64,000 nucleotides of DNA from an uncultured Thermoleophilia bacterium. Lineage in GTDB: Bacteria > Actinomycetota > Thermoleophilia > UBA2241. Shown one piece after another: positions 15,979 to 50,331 of the stretch. The DNA lies in NCBI GenBank assembly GCA_963762125.1, contig CAVXJO010000001.1:315940-379939 (forward strand), given 5' to 3'. Both the position numbers and the translations under genes were made by a program. Below the pieces are notes generated by a model. The model was not told the origin of the DNA. It worked only from the letters and a program-made list of their open reading frames with translations, and searched no databases. Each line of letters opens with the position of its first letter. Positions within the stretch are counted from its first letter, which is position 1.

Positions 15979-16076
15979 GGAGCGGCTCGTGGTCCGGTGA
16001 CTGCCGCGGTCTTCAAAACCGTCTGCGGGGCGATGATCTCGTCCTGGGTGGGTTCGACTCCCATGTCGCTCCGCCA
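15979..16076 (+). tRNA. selC: tRNA-Sec (anticodon UCA)
   Basis: 98 nt; 8-bp acceptor GGAGCGGC/GTCGCTCC; G discriminator plus encoded CCA; anticodon arm GCGGT-CTTCAAA-ACCGT; long variable arm; 5-bp T-stem with TTCGACT loop (bacterial 8/5 fold). Confidence 0.93.
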
Positions 16077-16201: not shown

Positions 16202-16990
16202 TTACTTGACGGTCAGCCTATTGACCGCGGCCTTGACGGAACGGTTGCCGGCGGCGTCGGTCGCCGTCACGTAGAACTTGTACCTGCCCTTGGCCAGCTT
16301 GCACTTGAAGGTCGCCTTCCGGACGACGTTGACGGCCTTGGCGCCCACCTTGATGGTCTTCACGACCTTGCCCTTGCGGTTCTTGATCTTGATGACGGCC
16401 TTGGCGGTCCCGAGGTTCGGGGCGGCGTCGTTGATCCGGTACTTCAGGGTCGCCTTCTTGCCCCTGACCACCTTGGCCGCGGAGGGTGCCTTGACGGTCG
16501 GGGCCGTGGTGTCGACGACGGTCCCGCCACCGCCGCCGCCGGTGTTGTCGACGACGGTCACTTGGTAGGTGGTGGAGGTCGCCTGGCCGGAGCCCGGCGT
16601 GCCCTTGGCGCCCCACACCCTGTACGTGTACGTGCCGGCGGCGCTGGGCGCCGTCATGTTGGCCATGAAGGGCGACGTGCCGGGGCCGCCGGACAAGCTC
16701 ACGGCAGGAGTCGACGCATCGTTGGCGCTGATCCAGTAGCCGGCCTGGCCGGAGGAGCCGAGCGCGACGGAGACGTTGACGCTGTACGCCTCGCCGGGAG
16801 CGAGGGTGGTCTTGCTCGGCGTCGCGGTCACGCTGCCGGACGGAGTGGCCGAGTGACAGGCGGAACACGTCGACTTGTAGCTGGGCAGCGCCTGGGCGGG
16901 CTTCGCGCCGACCACGACCACCATGAGGGCGATGGCTGCGACGGCGACACTGAGCGCGCCTACGAAATGGAACGAAGTGCGTCTGCTCAC
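16202..16990 (-). CDS. Secreted monoheme cytochrome c with a beta-rich middle domain and basic C-terminal domain
   Basis: Signal peptide ending AQA, CSACH shortly after cleavage, poly-Gly linker and Lys-rich ~104-aa C-terminal domain; AGGAG RBS before GTG 16990. Confidence 0.8.
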   Translation of the reverse strand: MSRRTSFHFVGALSVAVAAIALMVVVVGAKPAQALPSYKSTCSACHSATPSGSVTATPSKTTLAPGEAYSVNVSVALGSSGQAGYWISANDASTPAVSLSGGPGTSPFMANMTAPSAAGTYTYRVWGAKGTPGSGQATSTTYQVTVVDNTGGGGGGTVVDTTAPTVKAPSAAKVVRGKKATLKYRINDAAPNLGTAKAVIKIKNRKGKVVKTIKVGAKAVNVVRKATFKCKLAKGRYKFYVTATDAAGNRSVKAAVNRLTVK

Positions 16991-17062
16991 GGGCTCTCCT
17001 GACGTCGGGTACTGAACTCGCCGCTCCAGTCTCATACGGTAGAGCGGCCATATGCACCAAAG

Positions 17063-42083: not shown

Positions 42084-44837
42084 ATGTGCGGCATCTTCGG
42101 CTTCGCCGGCTCGCCCGACCGGCAGCTTCTCGGGCGTATGGCCGCCGCCATCGTGCACCGCGGCCCCGATGACGCCGGCGCCTTCGAGACGCCGTCCGTC
42201 AGCCTCGGTCACCGCCGCCTGAGCATCATCGACCGCGAGGGCGGGCACCAGCCGGTCGCCAACGAGGACGAGACCGTCTGGCTCGTCTACAACGGCGAGG
42301 TCTACAACTACCGCGAGCTGCGCGCCGAGCTCGAGGCCGCCGGCCACACCTTCCGCACGCACTGCGACTCCGAGGTCATCGTCCACGCCTACGAGGAGTG
42401 GGGCGCCGCCTGCGCCGCGCGCTTCAACGGCATGTGGGCGTTCGCCATCGCCGACCTGCGCGGCGCCGATGAGGACGGGCGCGGCGGCAAGCTGGTGCTG
42501 AACCGCGACCACTTCGGCATCAAGCCTCTGTACTACGCGCGTTCGCCGCAGACCGGCCGCCTGCTGTTCGCCAGCGAGATCAAGGCGCTGCTCCAGGATC
42601 CCGAGCTGGTCGCCGAGCCGGACGAGCAGATGATCTTCGAGTATCTGCAGCACGGCTTCCACGACCACCGCGCGGAGACGTTCTTCAAGGGCGTCTACCA
42701 CGTGCCGGCGGCGACCTGGATCGAGCTGCCGCTGGGCGAGACCGCCGCGGCCGGCATGCTCGTCGCCGCGCTCGACAGCACCGCCTACTGGACGCCGCGG
42801 CTGACGACTGACGGCGGCGACGACCCGGCCGACTTCCGGCGCCGCTTCCGCGAGAGCGTCGAGCGGCGCCTCGTCTCCGAGGTCCCGGTCGGCTCCTGCC
42901 TCTCCGGCGGCCTCGACTCGACGACGATCATCAGCTTCATGAGCGAGCTGCTCAAGGAGGACGCGCCCGACGCGACGTCGCTGCGCGGCCAGCTCAAGAC
43001 CTTCAGCGCCGTGTTCGACGGCGACCCCATCGACGAGCGCGAGTACATCGAGATCGCCGTCGAGAGCACCGGCGCCGACACCACCTACACCAATCCGACG
43101 TCGCACGAGTTCATCGGCGAGCTCCGCGACTTCGTCTGGCACCAGGAAGAGCCCATCGTCAGCACCGGCCCCTACGCGCAGTGGTGCGTGATGCGCGTCG
43201 CGCGCGAGCAGGTCACCGTGCTGCTCGACGGACAGGGCGGCGACGAGCTGATCGCCGGCTACGTGCCGTACCAGCTCGTCTACCTGCGCCAACTGCGCAA
43301 GCAGGGCGACTATGCCAAGTTGCGCGAGGAGGCCACCGCCTCGCGCGACGTGCTCTGGCCGCTGGCCAAACGGCGCATCAGGCAGCGGCGCAGGCAGCTG
43401 CCGACGCGCAAGCTCCTGCGGCGGGACTTCCTGGCCCGGACCACGGACCCCGGGTACGGGCGCTCCCAGTCGGAGCTCAAGGAGCGCCTCCTTCAAGACA
43501 CGCTCACCTACAGCCTGCCGTGCCTGCTCCGCTACGAGGACCGCAACTCCATGGCGTTCAGCATCGAGAGCCGGGTGCCGTATCTCGACCAGGAGTTCGT
43601 CGACCACATCCTCAGCCTGCCGGAGGACGCGATCGTGCGTCACGGCTGGAGCCGCTGGATCCTGCGCGCGGCGCTCAAGGGCACGCTGCCCGAGAAGATC
43701 CGCCTGCGCCGCTGGAAGGTCGGGTTCACGACGCCGGAGATGCGCTGGATCAAGGCGCGCCGCGCGGCGTTCACCAGCCTCTACCAGTCGCCGACGTTCC
43801 AGGCGCGTCCGTACTGGGACGGCGAGGCCGTGGTGAGCGCGTTCCGCGCCTGCTGCCGCGGCGAGGTCGAGGAGAGCATGTTCTTCTGGCGCGCCGCCAA
43901 CGTCGAGCTGTGGCTGCGCGAGTTCGTCGACGGGAGCGTGGTGCTCGTGGACGCCGACGTGGAGGCGGCGCTCAGCGCGCCCGTCCCCGTCGGCCCGGTG
44001 CACCGCGGCAGCATCGCCGAAGCCGGCGACGCGCAGGTGCCGGCGCTGCTCGCTGCGGCCGCGGGCCCGCAGGGCCCCGCCGCGGCCGCCGAGGCCGAGC
44101 GCCTCCTGGCCGGGTACGCGCCGAACGAGGAGAAGCACCTGTTCGGCGTCGCCGCCGGCACCGTGTTCGCCCGCCTGCCCCTGCGCACCGACCTCGTCGG
44201 TCGCGGCGACGACCTGGACGAGCTCATGCGGCGCCAGGTCGCGGAGCACGTCCGCCCCGGCGACCTCGTCGTCATGGCCGAGAAGCCCATCGCCGCCAGC
44301 CAGGGCCGCAGCTACGCGCTGGACGAGATCCACCCGACCAGGCTGGCCAAGGTCCTCAGCAGGGCGGTGACCAGGACGCCGCACGGCATCGGCCTCGGTA
44401 TCCCCGAGACCATGCAGCTCGCCATCGACGAGGCCGGCGCGCCGCGCATCGTGGCCGCCGCAGCCGTCTCGGCGGCCGGCAAGGTGGTCGGCAAGCGAGG
44501 TCTCTTCTACAAGGTCGCCGGCGCCGATGTGGAGGCCATCGACGGCCCCACCTGGAACACGCTGCCGCCGCACAACACGCACGCCAAGCTGGGCCCGGCG
44601 GACCCGGACGGCGTCGCGGCCCACCTCGCGGACGTCCTGAGCGACGCCGCCGGCGGCCGCGTCGAGTTCGTCGTCATCGACGCCAACGACCTCACCGCGG
44701 CCGTGCTCGGCGCTTCGCCGGGCGCCGATCGCGCCCTCGCCAAGCGTCTCATGCGCGACAACCCGCTGGGGCAGGGACACGAGCAGACGCCGGTCTGCGT
44801 CCTGCGCCCGCTCGGGCCGCTGCCGCTCCCGGCCTGA
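42084..44837 (+). CDS. asnB: Asparagine-synthase-type amidotransferase fused to a C-terminal coenzyme F420:L-glutamate ligase (CofE)-like domain
   Basis: MCGI (Ntn Cys), HRRLSIID, YNGEVYN, LSGGLDS and DGQGGDE; C-terminal LRTDLV..GD...VVMAEK.IAASQGR...IDAND...DNPLGQG.EQTP. Single uninterrupted 917-aa frame. Confidence 0.88.
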   Translation: MCGIFGFAGSPDRQLLGRMAAAIVHRGPDDAGAFETPSVSLGHRRLSIIDREGGHQPVANEDETVWLVYNGEVYNYRELRAELEAAGHTFRTHCDSEVIVHAYEEWGAACAARFNGMWAFAIADLRGADEDGRGGKLVLNRDHFGIKPLYYARSPQTGRLLFASEIKALLQDPELVAEPDEQMIFEYLQHGFHDHRAETFFKGVYHVPAATWIELPLGETAAAGMLVAALDSTAYWTPRLTTDGGDDPADFRRRFRESVERRLVSEVPVGSCLSGGLDSTTIISFMSELLKEDAPDATSLRGQLKTFSAVFDGDPIDEREYIEIAVESTGADTTYTNPTSHEFIGELRDFVWHQEEPIVSTGPYAQWCVMRVAREQVTVLLDGQGGDELIAGYVPYQLVYLRQLRKQGDYAKLREEATASRDVLWPLAKRRIRQRRRQLPTRKLLRRDFLARTTDPGYGRSQSELKERLLQDTLTYSLPCLLRYEDRNSMAFSIESRVPYLDQEFVDHILSLPEDAIVRHGWSRWILRAALKGTLPEKIRLRRWKVGFTTPEMRWIKARRAAFTSLYQSPTFQARPYWDGEAVVSAFRACCRGEVEESMFFWRAANVELWLREFVDGSVVLVDADVEAALSAPVPVGPVHRGSIAEAGDAQVPALLAAAAGPQGPAAAAEAERLLAGYAPNEEKHLFGVAAGTVFARLPLRTDLVGRGDDLDELMRRQVAEHVRPGDLVVMAEKPIAASQGRSYALDEIHPTRLAKVLSRAVTRTPHGIGLGIPETMQLAIDEAGAPRIVAAAAVSAAGKVVGKRGLFYKVAGADVEAIDGPTWNTLPPHNTHAKLGPADPDGVAAHLADVLSDAAGGRVEFVVIDANDLTAAVLGASPGADRALAKRLMRDNPLGQGHEQTPVCVLRPLGPLPLPA

Positions 44838-44849
44838 CCGGACCGGCGC

Positions 44850-46742
44850 CTACCTCACCACGAGCCGTTGAGAGCCGATCCTGCCCTGCCGGTTGCCGGC
44901 CAGATCGGTCGCGTAGACCTTCCAGGTGTAGGTCCCCCTCGCGAGCCGGCACGCCCAGGAGTACTTCTGCGGGGTGTTCGTCGCGCGACGGCCCACGTGG
45001 ATCGTCTTGACGGGCTTCCTGCCCCTGTAGACCCTGACGGTGAAAGCGGCTCGCGGCGTCACGTCCGTCGCGCTGAAGCGCAGGATCGCCCTCCGACCCT
45101 TCCTCACCCTGGCCTTCGAGAGGGCATGTGTTGCGGGCCGACCGGTATCCACTCGCACCGTCGCCGTGCGGGGGCTCTCAGCGTTCCCCACGTCGTCGAC
45201 GGCTCGGTAGGTGAGTCTGTGTACGCCGTTACCGCTGATCGTGCAGGACGTGCCTTGGGTCCAAGGGCCGTCGTCGAGCCCGTACTCGATATGGGCGACG
45301 CCGGAGCCCGCGTCGATGGCGGAGAAGGAGATGACGACGGCCGACGCGTGCCAGGCGCCGTCGATTCCGGTGGCCGTCGTCACGGGCGCCTCGGTGTCGA
45401 CGGCGCCCCAGGCGTCGAGGCGCCCGCCGGTCACGCACGTGCCGGCGAGGCTCGCGACACGATCTGCGCTCGCGAGTACTCGGGCGATCCGCTCGGCGAC
45501 CGTCTCGCCGGGGTGGAGGGCGGCGCACAGGGCGACGGTACCCGTGACGTGCGGCGCCGCCATGGAGGTGCCGTTCTTTGAGGCGTAGCCACCGGGGGTC
45601 ATCGAGGTGGGCACGGTGCTCCAGATGGCGGTGCCCGGCGCCGCCAGATCGACTGAGGAGGCGCCGTAGTTCGAGAACGGAGTGAGCGCATCCGTGGTGT
45701 CGGAGGCCGCTACCGCGATGATGTTCGGGGAGTCGTAGGAGGCCGGATAGAAGGGGGTGGCGTCGTTGTCGTCGCCGACCTTGTCGACGCCGCCGTTGCC
45801 GGCAGCCGCCACGACGATGATGCCGGCGTCGCCGGCGGTCTCGATCGCCCAGCGGAGAAACGCACTGTTCTCGCTGTCGCCCCAAGAGGCGTTGATGGCG
45901 ACGACGTTGACGCCCCGCTGACGCATCGCGACCACGTAGTCGATGCAGGCGATGGCGTCGGAGGTGGCGCCCAGGCCGTCGGCGTTGAAGAAGCGGAGAG
46001 CCATGATGCGCGCTTGCCAGGCGACGCCGGTGACGCCCGTCCCGTTGTCGCCCACGCCGGCCATGGTCCCGGCGGTGTGCGTCCCGTGTCCCTGTACGTC
46101 CATCGGGTCGGATGGATCGGCTGCGTCGGATGCGCTGGCCATGCCGTAGATGTCGTCGACGTAGCCGTTCTCGTCGTCGTCCAGCCCGTTGCCCGCGATC
46201 TCACCCGGGTTGTGCCACATGTTGGCGGCGAGGTCGGGGTGCGTGTAGTCCACGCCGGTGTCGACGCTGGCCAGCACCACCGACGGGGATCCCGTGGTCA
46301 GGTCCCAGGCGCCGGGCGCCCGGATCTGCAGCATGCCCCACAGCGCGGGAAGGTCCGGGTCGTCGGGCGTCGCGTCCAGGTGCAGAAGATAGTCCGGTTC
46401 GGCGCGGTCGACCCGAGGATCAGCCCTCAGCTGGTCGATCAGCTCGCCGGTCGTGAGCGAGGCCGAGCGAACGACCGCTGTGCGGCCGCCGCCCGCCGCC
46501 CGCGGCGGCACCGCCACGACGCGAGCATCGTTCTTGCTCGCCAGGCGCGTGATCGCCGCCAGGGAGACGCCCTCGTGGAACCTGACCAGGGCTTGCCGCG
46601 GCACGGACCGTGCCGTGATTTCCCGGTCGCCGGGCCGATCAGACGCGCCACCACGCGCCGCCGCGGTGGGAGCCGGACCGCTGACCAGCAGGGCTGCGAG
46701 CCCCGCGATGACGACGAGCAGCCGGGAGTGATACCTGTCCAC
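44850..46742 (-). CDS. Secreted S8 subtilisin-like protease with Ig-like and basic C-terminal domains
   Basis: Signal peptide; DTG, HGTHTAG and GTSMAAPHV catalytic triad; GGGAG RBS before GTG 46742. Confidence 0.92.
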   Translation of the reverse strand: MDRYHSRLLVVIAGLAALLVSGPAPTAAARGGASDRPGDREITARSVPRQALVRFHEGVSLAAITRLASKNDARVVAVPPRAAGGGRTAVVRSASLTTGELIDQLRADPRVDRAEPDYLLHLDATPDDPDLPALWGMLQIRAPGAWDLTTGSPSVVLASVDTGVDYTHPDLAANMWHNPGEIAGNGLDDDENGYVDDIYGMASASDAADPSDPMDVQGHGTHTAGTMAGVGDNGTGVTGVAWQARIMALRFFNADGLGATSDAIACIDYVVAMRQRGVNVVAINASWGDSENSAFLRWAIETAGDAGIIVVAAAGNGGVDKVGDDNDATPFYPASYDSPNIIAVAASDTTDALTPFSNYGASSVDLAAPGTAIWSTVPTSMTPGGYASKNGTSMAAPHVTGTVALCAALHPGETVAERIARVLASADRVASLAGTCVTGGRLDAWGAVDTEAPVTTATGIDGAWHASAVVISFSAIDAGSGVAHIEYGLDDGPWTQGTSCTISGNGVHRLTYRAVDDVGNAESPRTATVRVDTGRPATHALSKARVRKGRRAILRFSATDVTPRAAFTVRVYRGRKPVKTIHVGRRATNTPQKYSWACRLARGTYTWKVYATDLAGNRQGRIGSQRLVVR

Positions 46743-46930
46743 GAGTCTCCCCCCTCGGCACACGCCGGGCGTGGCGTCCGGTGCTTCCGTTCGACGAGTA
46801 TCCAGATGGGGGGACGATAGCAGACGGGGCGGGCCTCCGCAGAAGGCTCGGCGGTCACATGCACGTGACCGCCGCCCATCCCTCGGGGTATAACGGGGCT
46901 CGGCTGGAGCACCTACGAGGAGGTCGGCCG

Positions 46931-47877
46931 GTGAGCATCGTCGAGGTCAACGAGCTGCGGAAGCAGTACGACCCGCCCAAGGGCGTGCTGGCCGTCGACG
47001 GCGTGAGCTTCGACATCGCCGAAGGCGAGATCTTCAGCCTCCTCGGCCCCAACGGCGCCGGCAAGAGCACCACCATCTCCATGCTGAGCTGCCTGCTGAA
47101 GCCGACCGGCGGCGACGCCACGATCGCCGGTCACTCCGTGGTCAGCGCATCCCAGGCGGTCAAGGAGACCATCGGTGTCGTCCCGCAGGACATCGCCCTG
47201 TACCCGGACATGAGCGCGCGGGAGAACCTCATCTTCTGGGGCAAGATGTACGGCCTTTCCGGCGACGCGCTCAAGCAGCGGGTCGACGAGGTCCTCGAGC
47301 TCATCACCCTCGTCGATCGCCAGAAGGACCGCGTCGACAAGTTCAGCGGCGGCATGAAGCGGCGCGTCAACATCGGCGTGGCGCTGCTGCACAGACCCAA
47401 GGTGCTGTACCTCGACGAGCCGACGGTGGGGATCGACCCGCAGAGCCGGCGGTCGATCCTCGACGGCATCCTCGCGCTCCGCGACCAGGGGATGACGATC
47501 CTCTACACCACGCACTACATGGCCGAGGCGCAGGAGCTCAGCGACCGTATCGGCATCGTCGACCACGGCAAGATGATCGCCATCGGGACGCACGAGGAAC
47601 TCGTGAAGATCGTCGGCGAGGGCGCCCGCGTCACCGCCCGCGTGGACCACTCCCTCGAGGGCATGGCCGAGCGCTGGCGCGAGGTCAAGGGCGTCGACAA
47701 GGTCGACATCGAGGAAGAAGAGGCGGTGCTGCTCACGGAGGATCCCAACGAGGTGCTGCCGCGGCTGTTCGAGGCCGCGGCCGCGGTCCGGGCTCCCGCA
47801 TCACTGAGATCAACGTCACCGAGCCGAACCTCGAGATGGTGTTCCTGCACCTGACCGGGCGGGCGCTCAGAGAATGA
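46931..47877 (+). CDS. ABC-2 exporter ATP-binding protein (DrrA/LnrL-like; frameshift at ~47790)
   Basis: GPNGAGKST, FSGGMKRR and YLDEPT; C-terminus NLEMVFLHLTGRALRE in the shifted frame. Confidence 0.9.
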
Positions 47878-47890
47878 CCAAGGCGTCGCG

Positions 47891-49126
47891 ATGAGGAAGA
47901 TCCTCGCCATCGCGTGGAAGGACCTGCGCAGCACGCTGCGCAACCGCCCGGCGCTGGTCATGATGCTGGTCGCGCCGCTGGGGCTGGCCGCCCTGCTGGG
48001 CTTCGCCTTCGGTGGGAGCGGCGGATTCGACATCGCCGCGACCAAGGTCGTGGTGGCGAACCTGGACAAGGGGGGCGCCGAGGCCGGCCAGAGCGCCGGC
48101 GCCGCCATCCAGAAGATCCTCACCAGCAAGGACCTCTCGGACGTCCTCGCCACGAAGACGGCGACGTCCGCGGACGCCGCGCGCAAAGCCGTCGACAACG
48201 GCGGCGCGGAGGTGGCCGTCATCATCCCGGCGGACTTCACCTCCGTCGTCTACGGGAGCGGCCCCGCCGCCACGAGCCAGGTCGAGCTGTACGAGAACCC
48301 GACTGCGGACATCGGTGGCTCCATCGTCGAGGGCGTCGTCGGCCAGGTGCTGGACGACTTCAACGGCGCCCGCGCGGCCGCCGCCGGCGCCGTCGCCGTG
48401 CGGGACGCCGGCGGTCCCTCCGCGTCCACGGTGGCCGCCCGCGCGGCCGAGACGTTCACCCACGCCGGCGGCGTCTCGGCCGGGCTCCAGGTCGCCCAAC
48501 GCTCGCCAAAGGTCGGCAAGACCGGCACGGACGTCAGCGTCACGGGCTCCATCCTCGCAGGCATGATGATCTTCTTCATGTTCTTCGGCGCCGCCAACGT
48601 CGCGCGGACGATCCTCACCGAGGACCGCGACGGCACCATGCCGCGCCTGTTCACGACGCCGACGCGGCATGGCACCGTCATCGCCGGTAAGTTCGTCGCC
48701 GTGTTCCTGACCGTGCTGGTGCAGGCCATCGTGCTCCTGATCGCCGGGCGGCTCATCTTCAGCATCCACTGGGGCCGCATCGACGTGGTGATCCTGCTCA
48801 CCGTCGTGGCCGCCGGCGTGGCCGGGGGCCTCGCGCTGCTCGTCATCTCGTTCGCCAAGACGCCCGCGCAGGCGGGCGCCATCGGTTCCGGCGTCTACCT
48901 CGTCCTTGCGCTGCTCGGCGGTAACTTCACAGGGACCGCCCAGACCGGCACCACCTACGCGTTCATCCAGCAGTTCACGCCCAACGGCTGGCTGCTCCAC
49001 GGCTGGGACACGGCCATGCGTGGCGGCGGCGTGGCGGACATCCGCTGGCAGGTGCTCGTCCCCCTCGGCTTCGCCGTGGCGTTCTTCTTCTTCGCCGTGA
49101 TGAGGATGAGGAGGAGGTTCGCATGA
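47891..49126 (+). CDS. ABC-2 permease with large extracellular domain
   Basis: IAWKDLR start; TM1, extracellular loop and five more TMs; co-operonic with the ATPase. Confidence 0.88.
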   Translation: MRKILAIAWKDLRSTLRNRPALVMMLVAPLGLAALLGFAFGGSGGFDIAATKVVVANLDKGGAEAGQSAGAAIQKILTSKDLSDVLATKTATSADAARKAVDNGGAEVAVIIPADFTSVVYGSGPAATSQVELYENPTADIGGSIVEGVVGQVLDDFNGARAAAAGAVAVRDAGGPSASTVAARAAETFTHAGGVSAGLQVAQRSPKVGKTGTDVSVTGSILAGMMIFFMFFGAANVARTILTEDRDGTMPRLFTTPTRHGTVIAGKFVAVFLTVLVQAIVLLIAGRLIFSIHWGRIDVVILLTVVAAGVAGGLALLVISFAKTPAQAGAIGSGVYLVLALLGGNFTGTAQTGTTYAFIQQFTPNGWLLHGWDTAMRGGGVADIRWQVLVPLGFAVAFFFFAVMRMRRRFA

Positions 49127-50331
49127 GGCTCGCTGCGCTCCTTGCTCGCAAGGACCTGATGGAGACCGCGCGGGACCGGCTGTCGTTCGTGTTCATCCTG
49201 GTCATGCCGCTGGCGTTCACCCTGTTCTTCGGCATCCTCTTCGGCGCCAACAGCAGCACCCAGAAGCTGCCGGTGGCGGTGTGGGACGCGGACGGCGGCG
49301 TTGCGGCGAAGCAGTTGGTCGCCGAGCTCGGCAAGTCCGCCGTGGTGCGCACGGTAGCCGTGAACGGCGCCGACCTCGAGCAGCAGATCGCCGACGGCAA
49401 GGCCGCCGCCGGCCTGGTGATCCCCGCCGGCTACAGCCAGGCGGTGGCGGACGGCAAGCAGGCGCAGCTCACGATCGTCTCGACGCAAGGGTCCAGCGGG
49501 GCGGCCACGGTGGCCAGCGAGATACGCTCGCTCGCCGGCGAGCAGGTGACGGTGGAGTTGGCGTCCCGTGCTGCCGCGGAGGCCGTCTGGGCGTTCATGA
49601 CGTACCCGGCGGGCGCGGAGGTCTCCGGCATCCCGAAGACGGCCGCCCGGGCGAGGCCCATCGTCGCCGCGGCGCTCGCATCGCCGGCCGCGAGCACGAA
49701 GGTCGTCGAGGCCGGCGCGGCCGCCAACCAGACCCCGAGCGGCTTCGTCCTCAGCTCGCCGGGCATGATGGTGAACTTCATCCTGTTCAGCCTCATGACC
49801 GCCGGCATCGCGCTCATCGTCGAGCGCCAGAACGGCACGCTGCAGCGCCTCATGACTACGCGGCTCCGCCGCTGGGAGCTCATCGGCGGCAAGGCGGTCG
49901 GCATGTTCTGTCTCACCTTCGCGCAGCAGATCCTGCTGATGGGCGTCGGGCAGCTCTTCTTCGGGGTCGACTACCTGCGCGACCCGGCCGCGTTGCTGCT
50001 GATGATGGTCTCGCTCTCACTGGTGGCGAGCACGCTGGGTCTGCTGCTCGCCTCGGTGATGAAGAGCGAGCAGGCGCTCATCGCGACGACGGTGCTCGTC
50101 TCGATGGCCGTCGCCGCCATGTCCGGCGCGTGGTTCCCGCTGGAGATCACCGGGCAGACGTTCCAGACCGTCGGCCACCTGCTGCCCACCGCCTGGATAC
50201 TCGACGGGCTGCGCGGGATCGTCGTGCGCGGGTTTGATGTCGCCGACGTGCTGCCCGCGTTCGGCGTCTCAGTCGCGTGGGCCGCGGGGTTCTTCGTGCT
50301 CGCCGTCTGGCGCTTCCGTCTCAGCGACTAG
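49123..50331 (+). CDS. ABC-2 permease with large extracellular domain (second subunit)
   Basis: LARKDL start, ERQNGTLQRL and SGAWFPLE; ATGA overlap with the previous gene. Confidence 0.88.
   Translation: MRLAALLARKDLMETARDRLSFVFILVMPLAFTLFFGILFGANSSTQKLPVAVWDADGGVAAKQLVAELGKSAVVRTVAVNGADLEQQIADGKAAAGLVIPAGYSQAVADGKQAQLTIVSTQGSSGAATVASEIRSLAGEQVTVELASRAAAEAVWAFMTYPAGAEVSGIPKTAARARPIVAAALASPAASTKVVEAGAAANQTPSGFVLSSPGMMVNFILFSLMTAGIALIVERQNGTLQRLMTTRLRRWELIGGKAVGMFCLTFAQQILLMGVGQLFFGVDYLRDPAALLLMMVSLSLVASTLGLLLASVMKSEQALIATTVLVSMAVAAMSGAWFPLEITGQTFQTVGHLLPTAWILDGLRGIVVRGFDVADVLPAFGVSVAWAAGFFVLAVWRFRLSD

Follow-up and report, generated by a model that had tools for sequence, protein, structure and literature searches.

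The window examined here, a 64,000-nucleotide stretch of DNA from an uncultured Thermoleophilia bacterium (GenBank assembly GCA_963762125.1, contig CAVXJO010000001.1, positions 315,940 to 379,939 of the forward strand; G+C content 70.6%), encodes two otherwise unrelated, putatively exported proteins that end in homologous, strongly basic immunoglobulin-like (Ig-like) domains of about 105 residues. One is a CxxCH protein (protein A) and the other an S8 protease (protein B). The basic domain belongs to a family that recurs on many unrelated exported proteins of one lineage. Its position, its charge and its range of carrier types lead us to infer, tentatively, a lineage-specific non-covalent module, which would bind an anionic component of the envelope and so keep its carriers at the cell.

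An earlier note on this DNA had pointed to homologous C-terminal domains on the two proteins, and its coordinates proved exact. BLASTP aligns residues 174-277 of protein A with residues 538-637 of protein B at 41 of 105 identical positions (39%; 57% positives; E = 3e-18), in agreement with the motif string that the note had written out, and finds no further significant alignment between the rest of the two proteins. The Lys/Arg-rich character claimed for both copies is equally evident in net charges of +24 (copy A; isoelectric point, pI, 11.1) and +22 (copy B; pI 12.0), the remainder of protein B having a charge of -27 and a pI of 4.6. Against the family hidden Markov model (HMM), the copies score 139.9 and 123.3 bits, respectively, each with zero residues after the domain. 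The window holds no third copy: when an HMM made from the two copies was run on the six-frame translation, A and B scored 180.7 bits each and the next match 10.6. The features of the two genes are as follows.

16202..16522, minus strand: copy A, basic C-terminal Ig-like domain and stop codon (16202-16204); residues 172-277 of the CxxCH protein, with V174 at 16516 and the end ...RLTVK-stop
44850..45158, minus strand: copy B, basic domain and stop codon (44850-44852); residues 536-637 of the S8 protease, with V538 at 45152 and the end ...RLVVR-stop
16202..17035, minus strand: gene A, putatively exported 277-residue CxxCH protein; beta-rich N-terminal domain, Gly6 linker, basic domain
16889..17035, minus strand: in protein A, predicted signal peptide or signal anchor; residues 1-49, AQA/LP, the AxA site being read from the sequence
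16853..16867, minus strand: CSACH haem-attachment motif of protein A; residues 57-61, beginning eight residues past AQA/LP
16523..16540, minus strand: Gly6 flexible linker of protein A, joining the N-terminal part to the basic domain
44850..46763, minus strand: gene B, putatively exported 637-residue subtilase; signal peptide, prodomain-like region, S8 catalytic domain, OmpL47-type barrel, basic domain
45150..45350, minus strand: OmpL47-type beta-barrel immediately upstream of copy B; NF047446, 84 bits (cutoff 40), residues 472-538

Both proteins have the N-terminal hydrophobic segment typical of a Sec signal, as the earlier note had stated, and are probably exported; the Kyte-Doolittle maximum over 12 residues is 3.20 in protein A and 3.11 in protein B, as against 1.68 or less in seven cytoplasmic proteins of the window. 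In protein B, Peptidase_S8 matches residues 161-433 with 167 bits, and the motifs of the catalytic triad are intact (DTGVD, residues 168-172; HGTH, 226-229; GTSMA, 398-402).

Protein A is a putative single-haem c-type cytochrome. What supports the name 'cytochrome c' given to it before is the conserved CxxCH motif; no cytochrome family model of Pfam or NCBIfam matches the protein, and the best PDB match is a dihaem cytochrome at E = 0.33. Here and below, P numbers denote proteins and L numbers loci from the GTDB-genome and metagenome searches. Four orthologues (P0117, P0124, P0136 and P0148) have the layout of protein A, with CSTCH in P0117, CASCH in P0124, CSNCH in P0136 and C-x4-CH in P0148 as the counterparts of its CxxCH, and the Met of 'MTAP' (16646-16657, minus strand) is kept in all five proteins. 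At the site of the linker, P0124 is Pro/Thr-rich and P0136 has an extra OmpL47-type domain. The N-terminal part may be an undescribed beta-rich single-haem surface protein. The only similarities seen are sub-threshold ones, to the NCBIfam choice-of-anchor V model (34.6 bits, cutoff 42) and to the MXAN_6652 MYXO-CTERM family. The G+C content at third codon positions of gene A is 0.91.

Position, carriers and charge across the family

Strong copies were taken as those scoring at least 46 bits with a second profile (alignment A2) in a six-frame scan of the fetched loci, duplicates being removed. Among the 67 distinct copies obtained, 60 lie within eight residues of the stop codon, most of them with zero residues after the domain, and 48 of these 60 have K or R as the last residue. 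The domain is single in every carrier protein, without tandem copies. The earlier statement that it always sits at the extreme C-terminus is thus right for the great majority and wrong for seven internal copies, five of which (L008, L072, L074, L075 and L100) have one architecture: a BNR propeller, an OmpL47-type domain and the basic domain, followed over about 185 residues by PG_binding_1 and a YkuD L,D-transpeptidase domain. This tail was confirmed by Pfam in two loci and assigned in L072, L074 and L075 from matching tails of about 185 residues and from scores.

L008 2597-4861 and L100 3603-5861: BNR/PG_binding_1/YkuD carriers identified by Pfam

In the fragment P0248, PG_binding_1 likewise stands directly after the basic domain. 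The remaining two internal copies are weak and diverged (46-47 bits), and one of them is ahead of a Peptidase_M14 domain. Internal occurrence is therefore infrequent and nearly all of one kind.

No cytoplasmic copy held up. A 105-residue 'stand-alone' copy in L007 is the 3' part of a frameshifted gene, the 5' part of which encodes a signal peptide and TIG-like repeats, and the other short copies that were checked are artefacts, being cut at contig ends (P0012) or, in several cases, beginning inside the upstream domain. All matches in word-indexed protein searches were of 188 residues or fewer and were contig-end fragments or products of frameshifted genes; architectures were taken from the loci and from the search of protein-cluster representatives, not from short database proteins. 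Split family genes occur in the long-read MFD-series metagenome-assembled genomes (MAGs; L005 3296-4306, L007 3088-4312, L017 3407-4207) and are either sequencing errors or pseudogenes. Such splitting gives rise to the apparent 'stand-alone' open reading frames (ORFs) of the domain in protein databases.

Family genes are adjacent to one another in several loci (three in L009, three in L016, two in L057, two in L078 and two convergent genes in L001). Since further copies lie in locus flanks that the search had not selected, the genomes hold multiple, often clustered paralogues. Furthermore, columns 39-44 of alignment A2 fall into two loop variants, 'APN[LA]GTA' and the three-residue-shorter 'TP---RA'. 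Each occurs on several unrelated carrier types, a spread that fits repeated shuffling of the domain better than shared descent with its carriers.

The recurrence on many unrelated exported proteins that the earlier note expected was found, with at least 14 types of N-terminal domain.

Hydrolases: Peptidase_S8; Peptidase_C1 with Lectin_like; C25-like; C39-like; GDSL lipase
Repeat and propeller proteins: FG-GAP (two kinds); PSII_BNR/Sortilin; RCC1; TIG / choice-of-anchor Z; LVIVD-type; CarboxypepD_reg
Other: OppA-like solute-binding protein (SBP_bac_5); CxxCH protein

A signal-type hydrophobic segment is present at 19 of 24 N-termini, and the other five sequences are truncated or start too far upstream; in L011, the signal peptide is found further into the ORF. 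The solute-binding protein P0161 (SBP_bac_5), known from a contig of only 3 kb, has an AQA/A-type signal and no convincing lipobox. The usual upstream neighbour of the basic domain is an OmpL47-type barrel (copy B, L002, L011, L016, P0129, P0136, P0153), whereas in orthologues of protein A the domain is joined through Gly-rich or Pro/Thr-rich linkers instead, which is the normal attachment mode of independent modules. Choice-of-anchor Z is above its cutoff in L016 and P0129; the term 'choice-of-anchor' is used for surface proteins that elsewhere end in LPXTG, PEP-CTERM or type IX secretion system (T9SS) signals (bioRxiv 10.1101/2023.03.06.531300).

All 61 full-length copies of the domain are net positive (+1 to +26, median +14), with zero or negative values never observed, and the pI, calculated for 31 copies, is 9.4-12. 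By contrast, the median charge is -4 over the 100 residues directly upstream, the pI of the rest of the protein is 4.3-6.9 in most carriers, and the homologous repeats of giant adhesins average -8.5 per 100 residues. At least half of the residues are K or R in 18 alignment columns, and only three columns are acidic (D4, D32 and D89). The latter, together with N93, are invariant or nearly so and form part of the DTxxP ... ATDxAGN framework common to the Ca2+-stabilized adhesin repeats; they probably represent the structural or Ca2+-binding motif of the bacterial Ig-like (BIg) repeats of adhesins and not a ligand site. The 'one conserved Cys' of the earlier note is present in about 90% of the family but is not invariant (Ala in L009, Val in L008), and is probably a core residue.

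Fold, relatives and taxonomic range

When 1.84 billion protein-cluster representatives were searched with the profile, 11,605 of them matched at E <= 0.001. The top of the list consists of proteins of 1,300-7,500 residues matching in 10-50 short stretches, mostly over the last ~30 profile positions, which hold a G-x-Y-x-x-x-V-x-A-x-D-x-A-G-N strand; these are giant adhesins built from Ig repeats. Per-domain scores with the first profile (alignment A1) are bimodal, at 89-175 bits for the full-length family and at most 24 bits for the adhesin repeats, and by this separation the full-length matches are the real family, distinct from the repeats.

The nearest Pfam family is Big_13 (PF19077), which matches 24 of 30 family members at E <= 0.01 (best 2.4e-7), mostly under its gathering threshold of 27 bits: domain A alone scores 23.5 bits, and the whole of protein B reaches 30 bits when summed over two stretches. 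FlgD_ig (PF13860) weakly matches 14 of the 30 (best E = 3.1e-6, under the curated cutoff of 27 bits), and Wzt_C, a glycan-binding beta-sandwich, weakly matches seven. The NCBIfam matches to the family domains are all sub-threshold (OmpL47 barrel, Ca_tandemer, FlgD and the 'rightmost' PxKF domain). The last of these (NF038114), promising by name, was rejected, with 22 bits in L012 (cutoff 35) and only two of the 30 members at E <= 0.1. A profile search of the PDB gave the BIg repeats of SiiE (6e-8), through the common strand motif, and the Siglec-like Ig domain of GspB (5iuc, positions 4-97, E = 1.2e-6, or 1.3e-5 with a smaller alignment). The AlphaFold2 model of copy A (pLDDT 88.8, pTM 0.79) is an eight-strand beta-sandwich, for which Foldseek returned only generic macroglobulin (MG-domain), Ig and FN3-like domains of the PDB (template-modelling score ~0.5-0.6, E >= 1e-4). 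The basic domain is thus a divergent Ig-like domain next to the Big_13, adhesin-BIg and Siglec-like groups. Its fold and superfamily are ordinary, and it is the behaviour of the subfamily that is unusual. Many database fragments of the family have already been labelled Big_13 automatically, and our literature searches turned up no paper describing the basic C-terminal domain.

The resemblance to the BIg repeats of Big_13 and the giant RTX/Bap-type adhesins (SiiE 2yn3, MpIBP RII 4p99, LapF/BapA) comprises the Ig-like beta-sandwich of ~100 residues, the DTxxP start and the C-terminal strand described above. Nevertheless, there are distinguishable differences. The BIg repeats are internal and acidic and occur in tens of tandem copies, whereas the basic domain is single, mostly terminal, polycationic and confined to one actinobacterial lineage. 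The Siglec-like domain of GspB (5iuc/3qc5), a lectin-type Ig domain that binds an anionic glycan, is the only solved structure with a near-full-length sequence match to the basic domain, although it lies inside the binding region of an LPXTG-anchored Firmicutes adhesin. Its YTRY motif, the Arg of which is the sialoglycan-binding residue, aligns with Y-[KRT]-[FW]-x, so that the Arg falls on the F/W column and is not conserved in the basic domain.

No described anchor or sorting domain was matched in the Pfam and NCBIfam scans, as the earlier note had surmised, and no strong match to any family of established function emerged from them. The published list of non-covalent wall-binding domains comprises LysM, WXL, SH3b/GW, SPOR, PGB1, CWB1, CWB2, SLH and ChW (PMC5817068). 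None of their Pfam models matched the 30 members or the two whole proteins; PG_binding_1 is confined to the YkuD fusions, where it forms an additional domain of its own behind the basic one. WXL domains occupy the last 100-190 residues of extracellular proteins with clustered genes (PMC5817068). The basic domain shares the C-terminal place and the gene clusters with them but is unrelated in sequence. The SLAP domain is strongly basic, like the domain described here, and again the sequences are unrelated. WXL, SLH, CWB2, LysM, GW and SLAP all belong to another fold class and are mostly repeats or trimers; the role that they would have in common with the basic domain is a proposed one. In this proposed working, the basic domain would come closest to the non-covalent modules by which Gram-positive bacteria attach C-termini to the wall (WXL, SLAP, SLH and CWB2).

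The restricted taxonomy foreseen by the earlier note is borne out in a search in which each GTDB species was represented by a single genome. The closest loci, 19 in number and with identities of 36-53% (E from 2e-27 to 8e-9), are all in MAGs labelled Thermoleophilia, 'uncultured Actinomycetes' or Actinomycetota, obtained from soil, peat, lake sediment and an anaerobic bioreactor, and are followed in rank by the Ig repeats of enterobacterial and other giant adhesins. The closest relatives of the domains in the window are metagenomic, with up to 86% identity. Taken together, the fold is a known one, but its specialization in this family is new and coherent and probably has a function, although the concept of a non-covalent terminal anchor is already known.

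Proposed envelope retention and the alternatives

In the mechanism that we tentatively favour, a carrier would be exported by Sec through its N-terminal signal peptide, and the C-terminal beta-sandwich, tethered by a flexible linker or an OmpL47-type stalk, would attach without a covalent bond to something anionic in the envelope of the producing cell, be it a glycopolymer of the wall, a lipoglycan or the anionic lipids of the membrane. The monoderm Thermoleophilia surface would thus retain the proteases and lipases, the propeller and repeat proteins, the solute-binding protein and the CxxCH redox protein. A domain that is single in copy, terminal, promiscuous in its pairing, flexibly tethered, limited to one lineage and polycationic is better explained as a targeting or retention module than as a spacer. 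That the target would be the cell's own envelope is argued by several features. The first is the presence of the domain on solute-binding (P0161) and CxxCH redox proteins, which in a monoderm must stay with the cell. The second is its place in the anchor slot of choice-of-anchor carriers. The third is the fusion to PG_binding_1 and YkuD at five loci, which puts the domain in a peptidoglycan-associated enzyme, and the fourth is the clustering of family genes, as for WXL proteins. Given the remote homology to the glycan-binding Siglec-like domain, the contact could plausibly be lectin-like and made with an anionic glycopolymer, but the sialoglycan-binding Arg is not conserved, and lipoglycans or anionic lipids are just as likely to be the ligand.

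Several points weigh against retention at the envelope. The host organisms are uncultured, the fold is generic in the Foldseek comparison, and a single small Ig domain is unlike most wall anchors, which are repeats or trimers (LysM, SLH, CWB2). The positive charge suits external polyanions or DNA equally well. In protein A, moreover, the 23-residue hydrophobic segment could stay uncleaved and itself hold the protein in the membrane, leaving no need for a second anchor. The anchor interpretation of the earlier note fares unevenly: the position, recurrence, taxonomy and charge of the domain agree with it, while the fold and superfamily are not new and anchoring itself is read from sequence features.

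The alternative that survives best, which we regard as possible but rather unlikely, is that the domain is an adhesion or substrate-targeting module. Like a carbohydrate-binding module, it would recognize external polyanions (acidic polysaccharides of plants or microbes, extracellular DNA, humic or mineral surfaces, or other cells) and bring the attached enzyme or repeat domain to them, the producer cell not being the anchoring site. Such a role would suit the nearest relatives, among them the Ig repeats of adhesins (SiiE, BapA/Lap-type) and, in GspB, the lectin-like Siglec domain, and the weak Wzt_C matches in seven of 30 members. It would also suit the many carriers that are hydrolases (S8, C1, GDSL) or adhesin-like repeat proteins; the Gly-rich or Pro/Thr-rich linkers resemble those between enzymes and carbohydrate-binding modules, and the strong charge fits any polyanion. 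However, it leaves unexplained the solute-binding and CxxCH redox carriers, the PG_binding_1-YkuD fusion and the occupation of the anchor slot in choice-of-anchor carriers.

Less probable still is a purely structural role, in which the domain would bind no ligand and would be an Ig-like end-cap or spacer, the last unit of an OmpL47/BIg-type stalk, which would have spread among paralogues by duplication and 3'-end recombination, with its charge as a lineage quirk. The domain does share its initial [IV]DTxxP boundary and its ATDxAGN motif with the preceding OmpL47-type domains and with the Big_13 repeats, an OmpL47-type barrel usually stands directly before the domain, and tandem clusters of paralogues exist. 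Yet spacer Ig domains vary in number and position, whereas the basic domain is always single and is terminal in ~90% of cases; its charge is positive in 61 of 61 copies next to acidic Ig-like neighbours, and the copy of protein A sits on a Gly6 linker with no stalk at all.

We consider it quite improbable that the domain is a true sorting or attachment signal, a counterpart of the T9SS C-terminal domain or LPXTG with dedicated machinery and perhaps cleavage or covalent attachment, in which case the feature recognized might be the conserved Lys/Arg at the C-terminus or the Cys that most members keep. The behaviour is certainly similar to that of the T9SS domain (Por_Secre_tail), in that a small beta-sandwich of ~100 residues occupies the extreme C-terminus of many unrelated Sec-exported proteins, and the final K/R in 48 of 60 terminal copies and the weak FlgD_ig matches in 14 of 30 members would also agree with it. 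However, the T9SS models TIGR04183, TIGR04131 and PF18962 matched neither the 30 members (NCBIfam E <= 0.1, Pfam E <= 0.01) nor the two whole proteins (E <= 1), and other sorting-signal models were likewise unmatched. T9SS hosts are diderms (Bacteroidota and relatives), whereas the hosts here are Actinomycetota, and the basic domain bears no sign of cleavage or of dedicated machinery. Of the co-occurring processing or polymer-synthesis genes for which the earlier note had suggested looking, none appeared among the neighbours: no conserved accessory gene was found beside the ~60 loci, where the recurrent neighbours are only antisense shadow ORFs or orthologue synteny. Five orthologous proteins, furthermore, tolerate ~185 residues after the domain. 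The least credible explanation is that the domain serves as a propeptide at the C-terminus, or as an intramolecular chaperone, and is removed after export. Bacterial secreted proteases often have cleaved-off C-terminal domains, and copies occur on the S8 protease of the window as well as on peptidases of the C1 and C25-like kinds. However, the majority of carriers have no protease domain (propellers, FG-GAP, RCC1, TIG, the solute-binding protein and the CxxCH protein), and neither the PPC pre-peptidase C-terminal domain nor the subtilase P-domain was matched.

Genomic surroundings and significance

Housekeeping genes surround genes A and B in the window. The sole Rfam match in the window is a tRNA-Sec gene at 15979-16072 (plus strand; 65.9 bits, E = 3.3e-11), which lies 130 bp past the gene A stop codon and is encoded on the other strand. 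Four related loci (L014, L016, L057 and L060) have common neighbours, of which, judged by eye, one resembles a protein of the SelD/AIR-synthase type and another one of the SelA type. With the tRNA-Sec gene next to gene A, this suggests that family genes lie near selenium-utilization genes in the lineage, a proximity that is probably synteny rather than a functional link.

Gene B is convergent with the gene of an unusual fusion protein of 917 residues at 42084-44837 (plus strand), which combines glutamine amidotransferase and asparagine synthase domains with a C-terminal F420-0:gamma-glutamyl ligase-like domain (PF01996, 50 bits); 13 bp separate the end of this gene from the gene B stop codon. 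On the other side, divergent from gene B, is an ABC-2-type exporter with one ATPase and two permease genes (46781-50331, plus strand). Homologous ABC-2 permease genes stand beside family genes in L053 and L054, so that the arrangement at the gene B locus is conserved.

The significance of the family depends on the role of the basic domain. If it were a true sorting signal, the module would define the whole surface proteome of uncultured Thermoleophilia, and if its targets are polyanions outside the cell, a new module of the lectin-like or carbohydrate-binding type would be at hand. If, as we tentatively prefer, it is a retention tag, one could predict from a single sequence rule which proteins a class-level lineage of uncultured Actinomycetota from soil, peat, sediment and bioreactors displays at its surface, among them proteases and lipases, binding proteins and perhaps an extracellular redox protein. 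A retention tag would also account for the way in which a monoderm cell keeps solute-binding and c-type cytochrome-like proteins that have no lipid anchor, and would add an Ig-fold, charge-based member to the wall-binding domains and a possible compact tag for surface display. Either way, the family merits a model of its own apart from Big_13, as it would otherwise remain buried among generic 'Ig-like domain' annotations. The observation is solid and of use for annotation, and with the mechanism proposed here it would offer a worthwhile lead into the envelope biology of an uncultured lineage.

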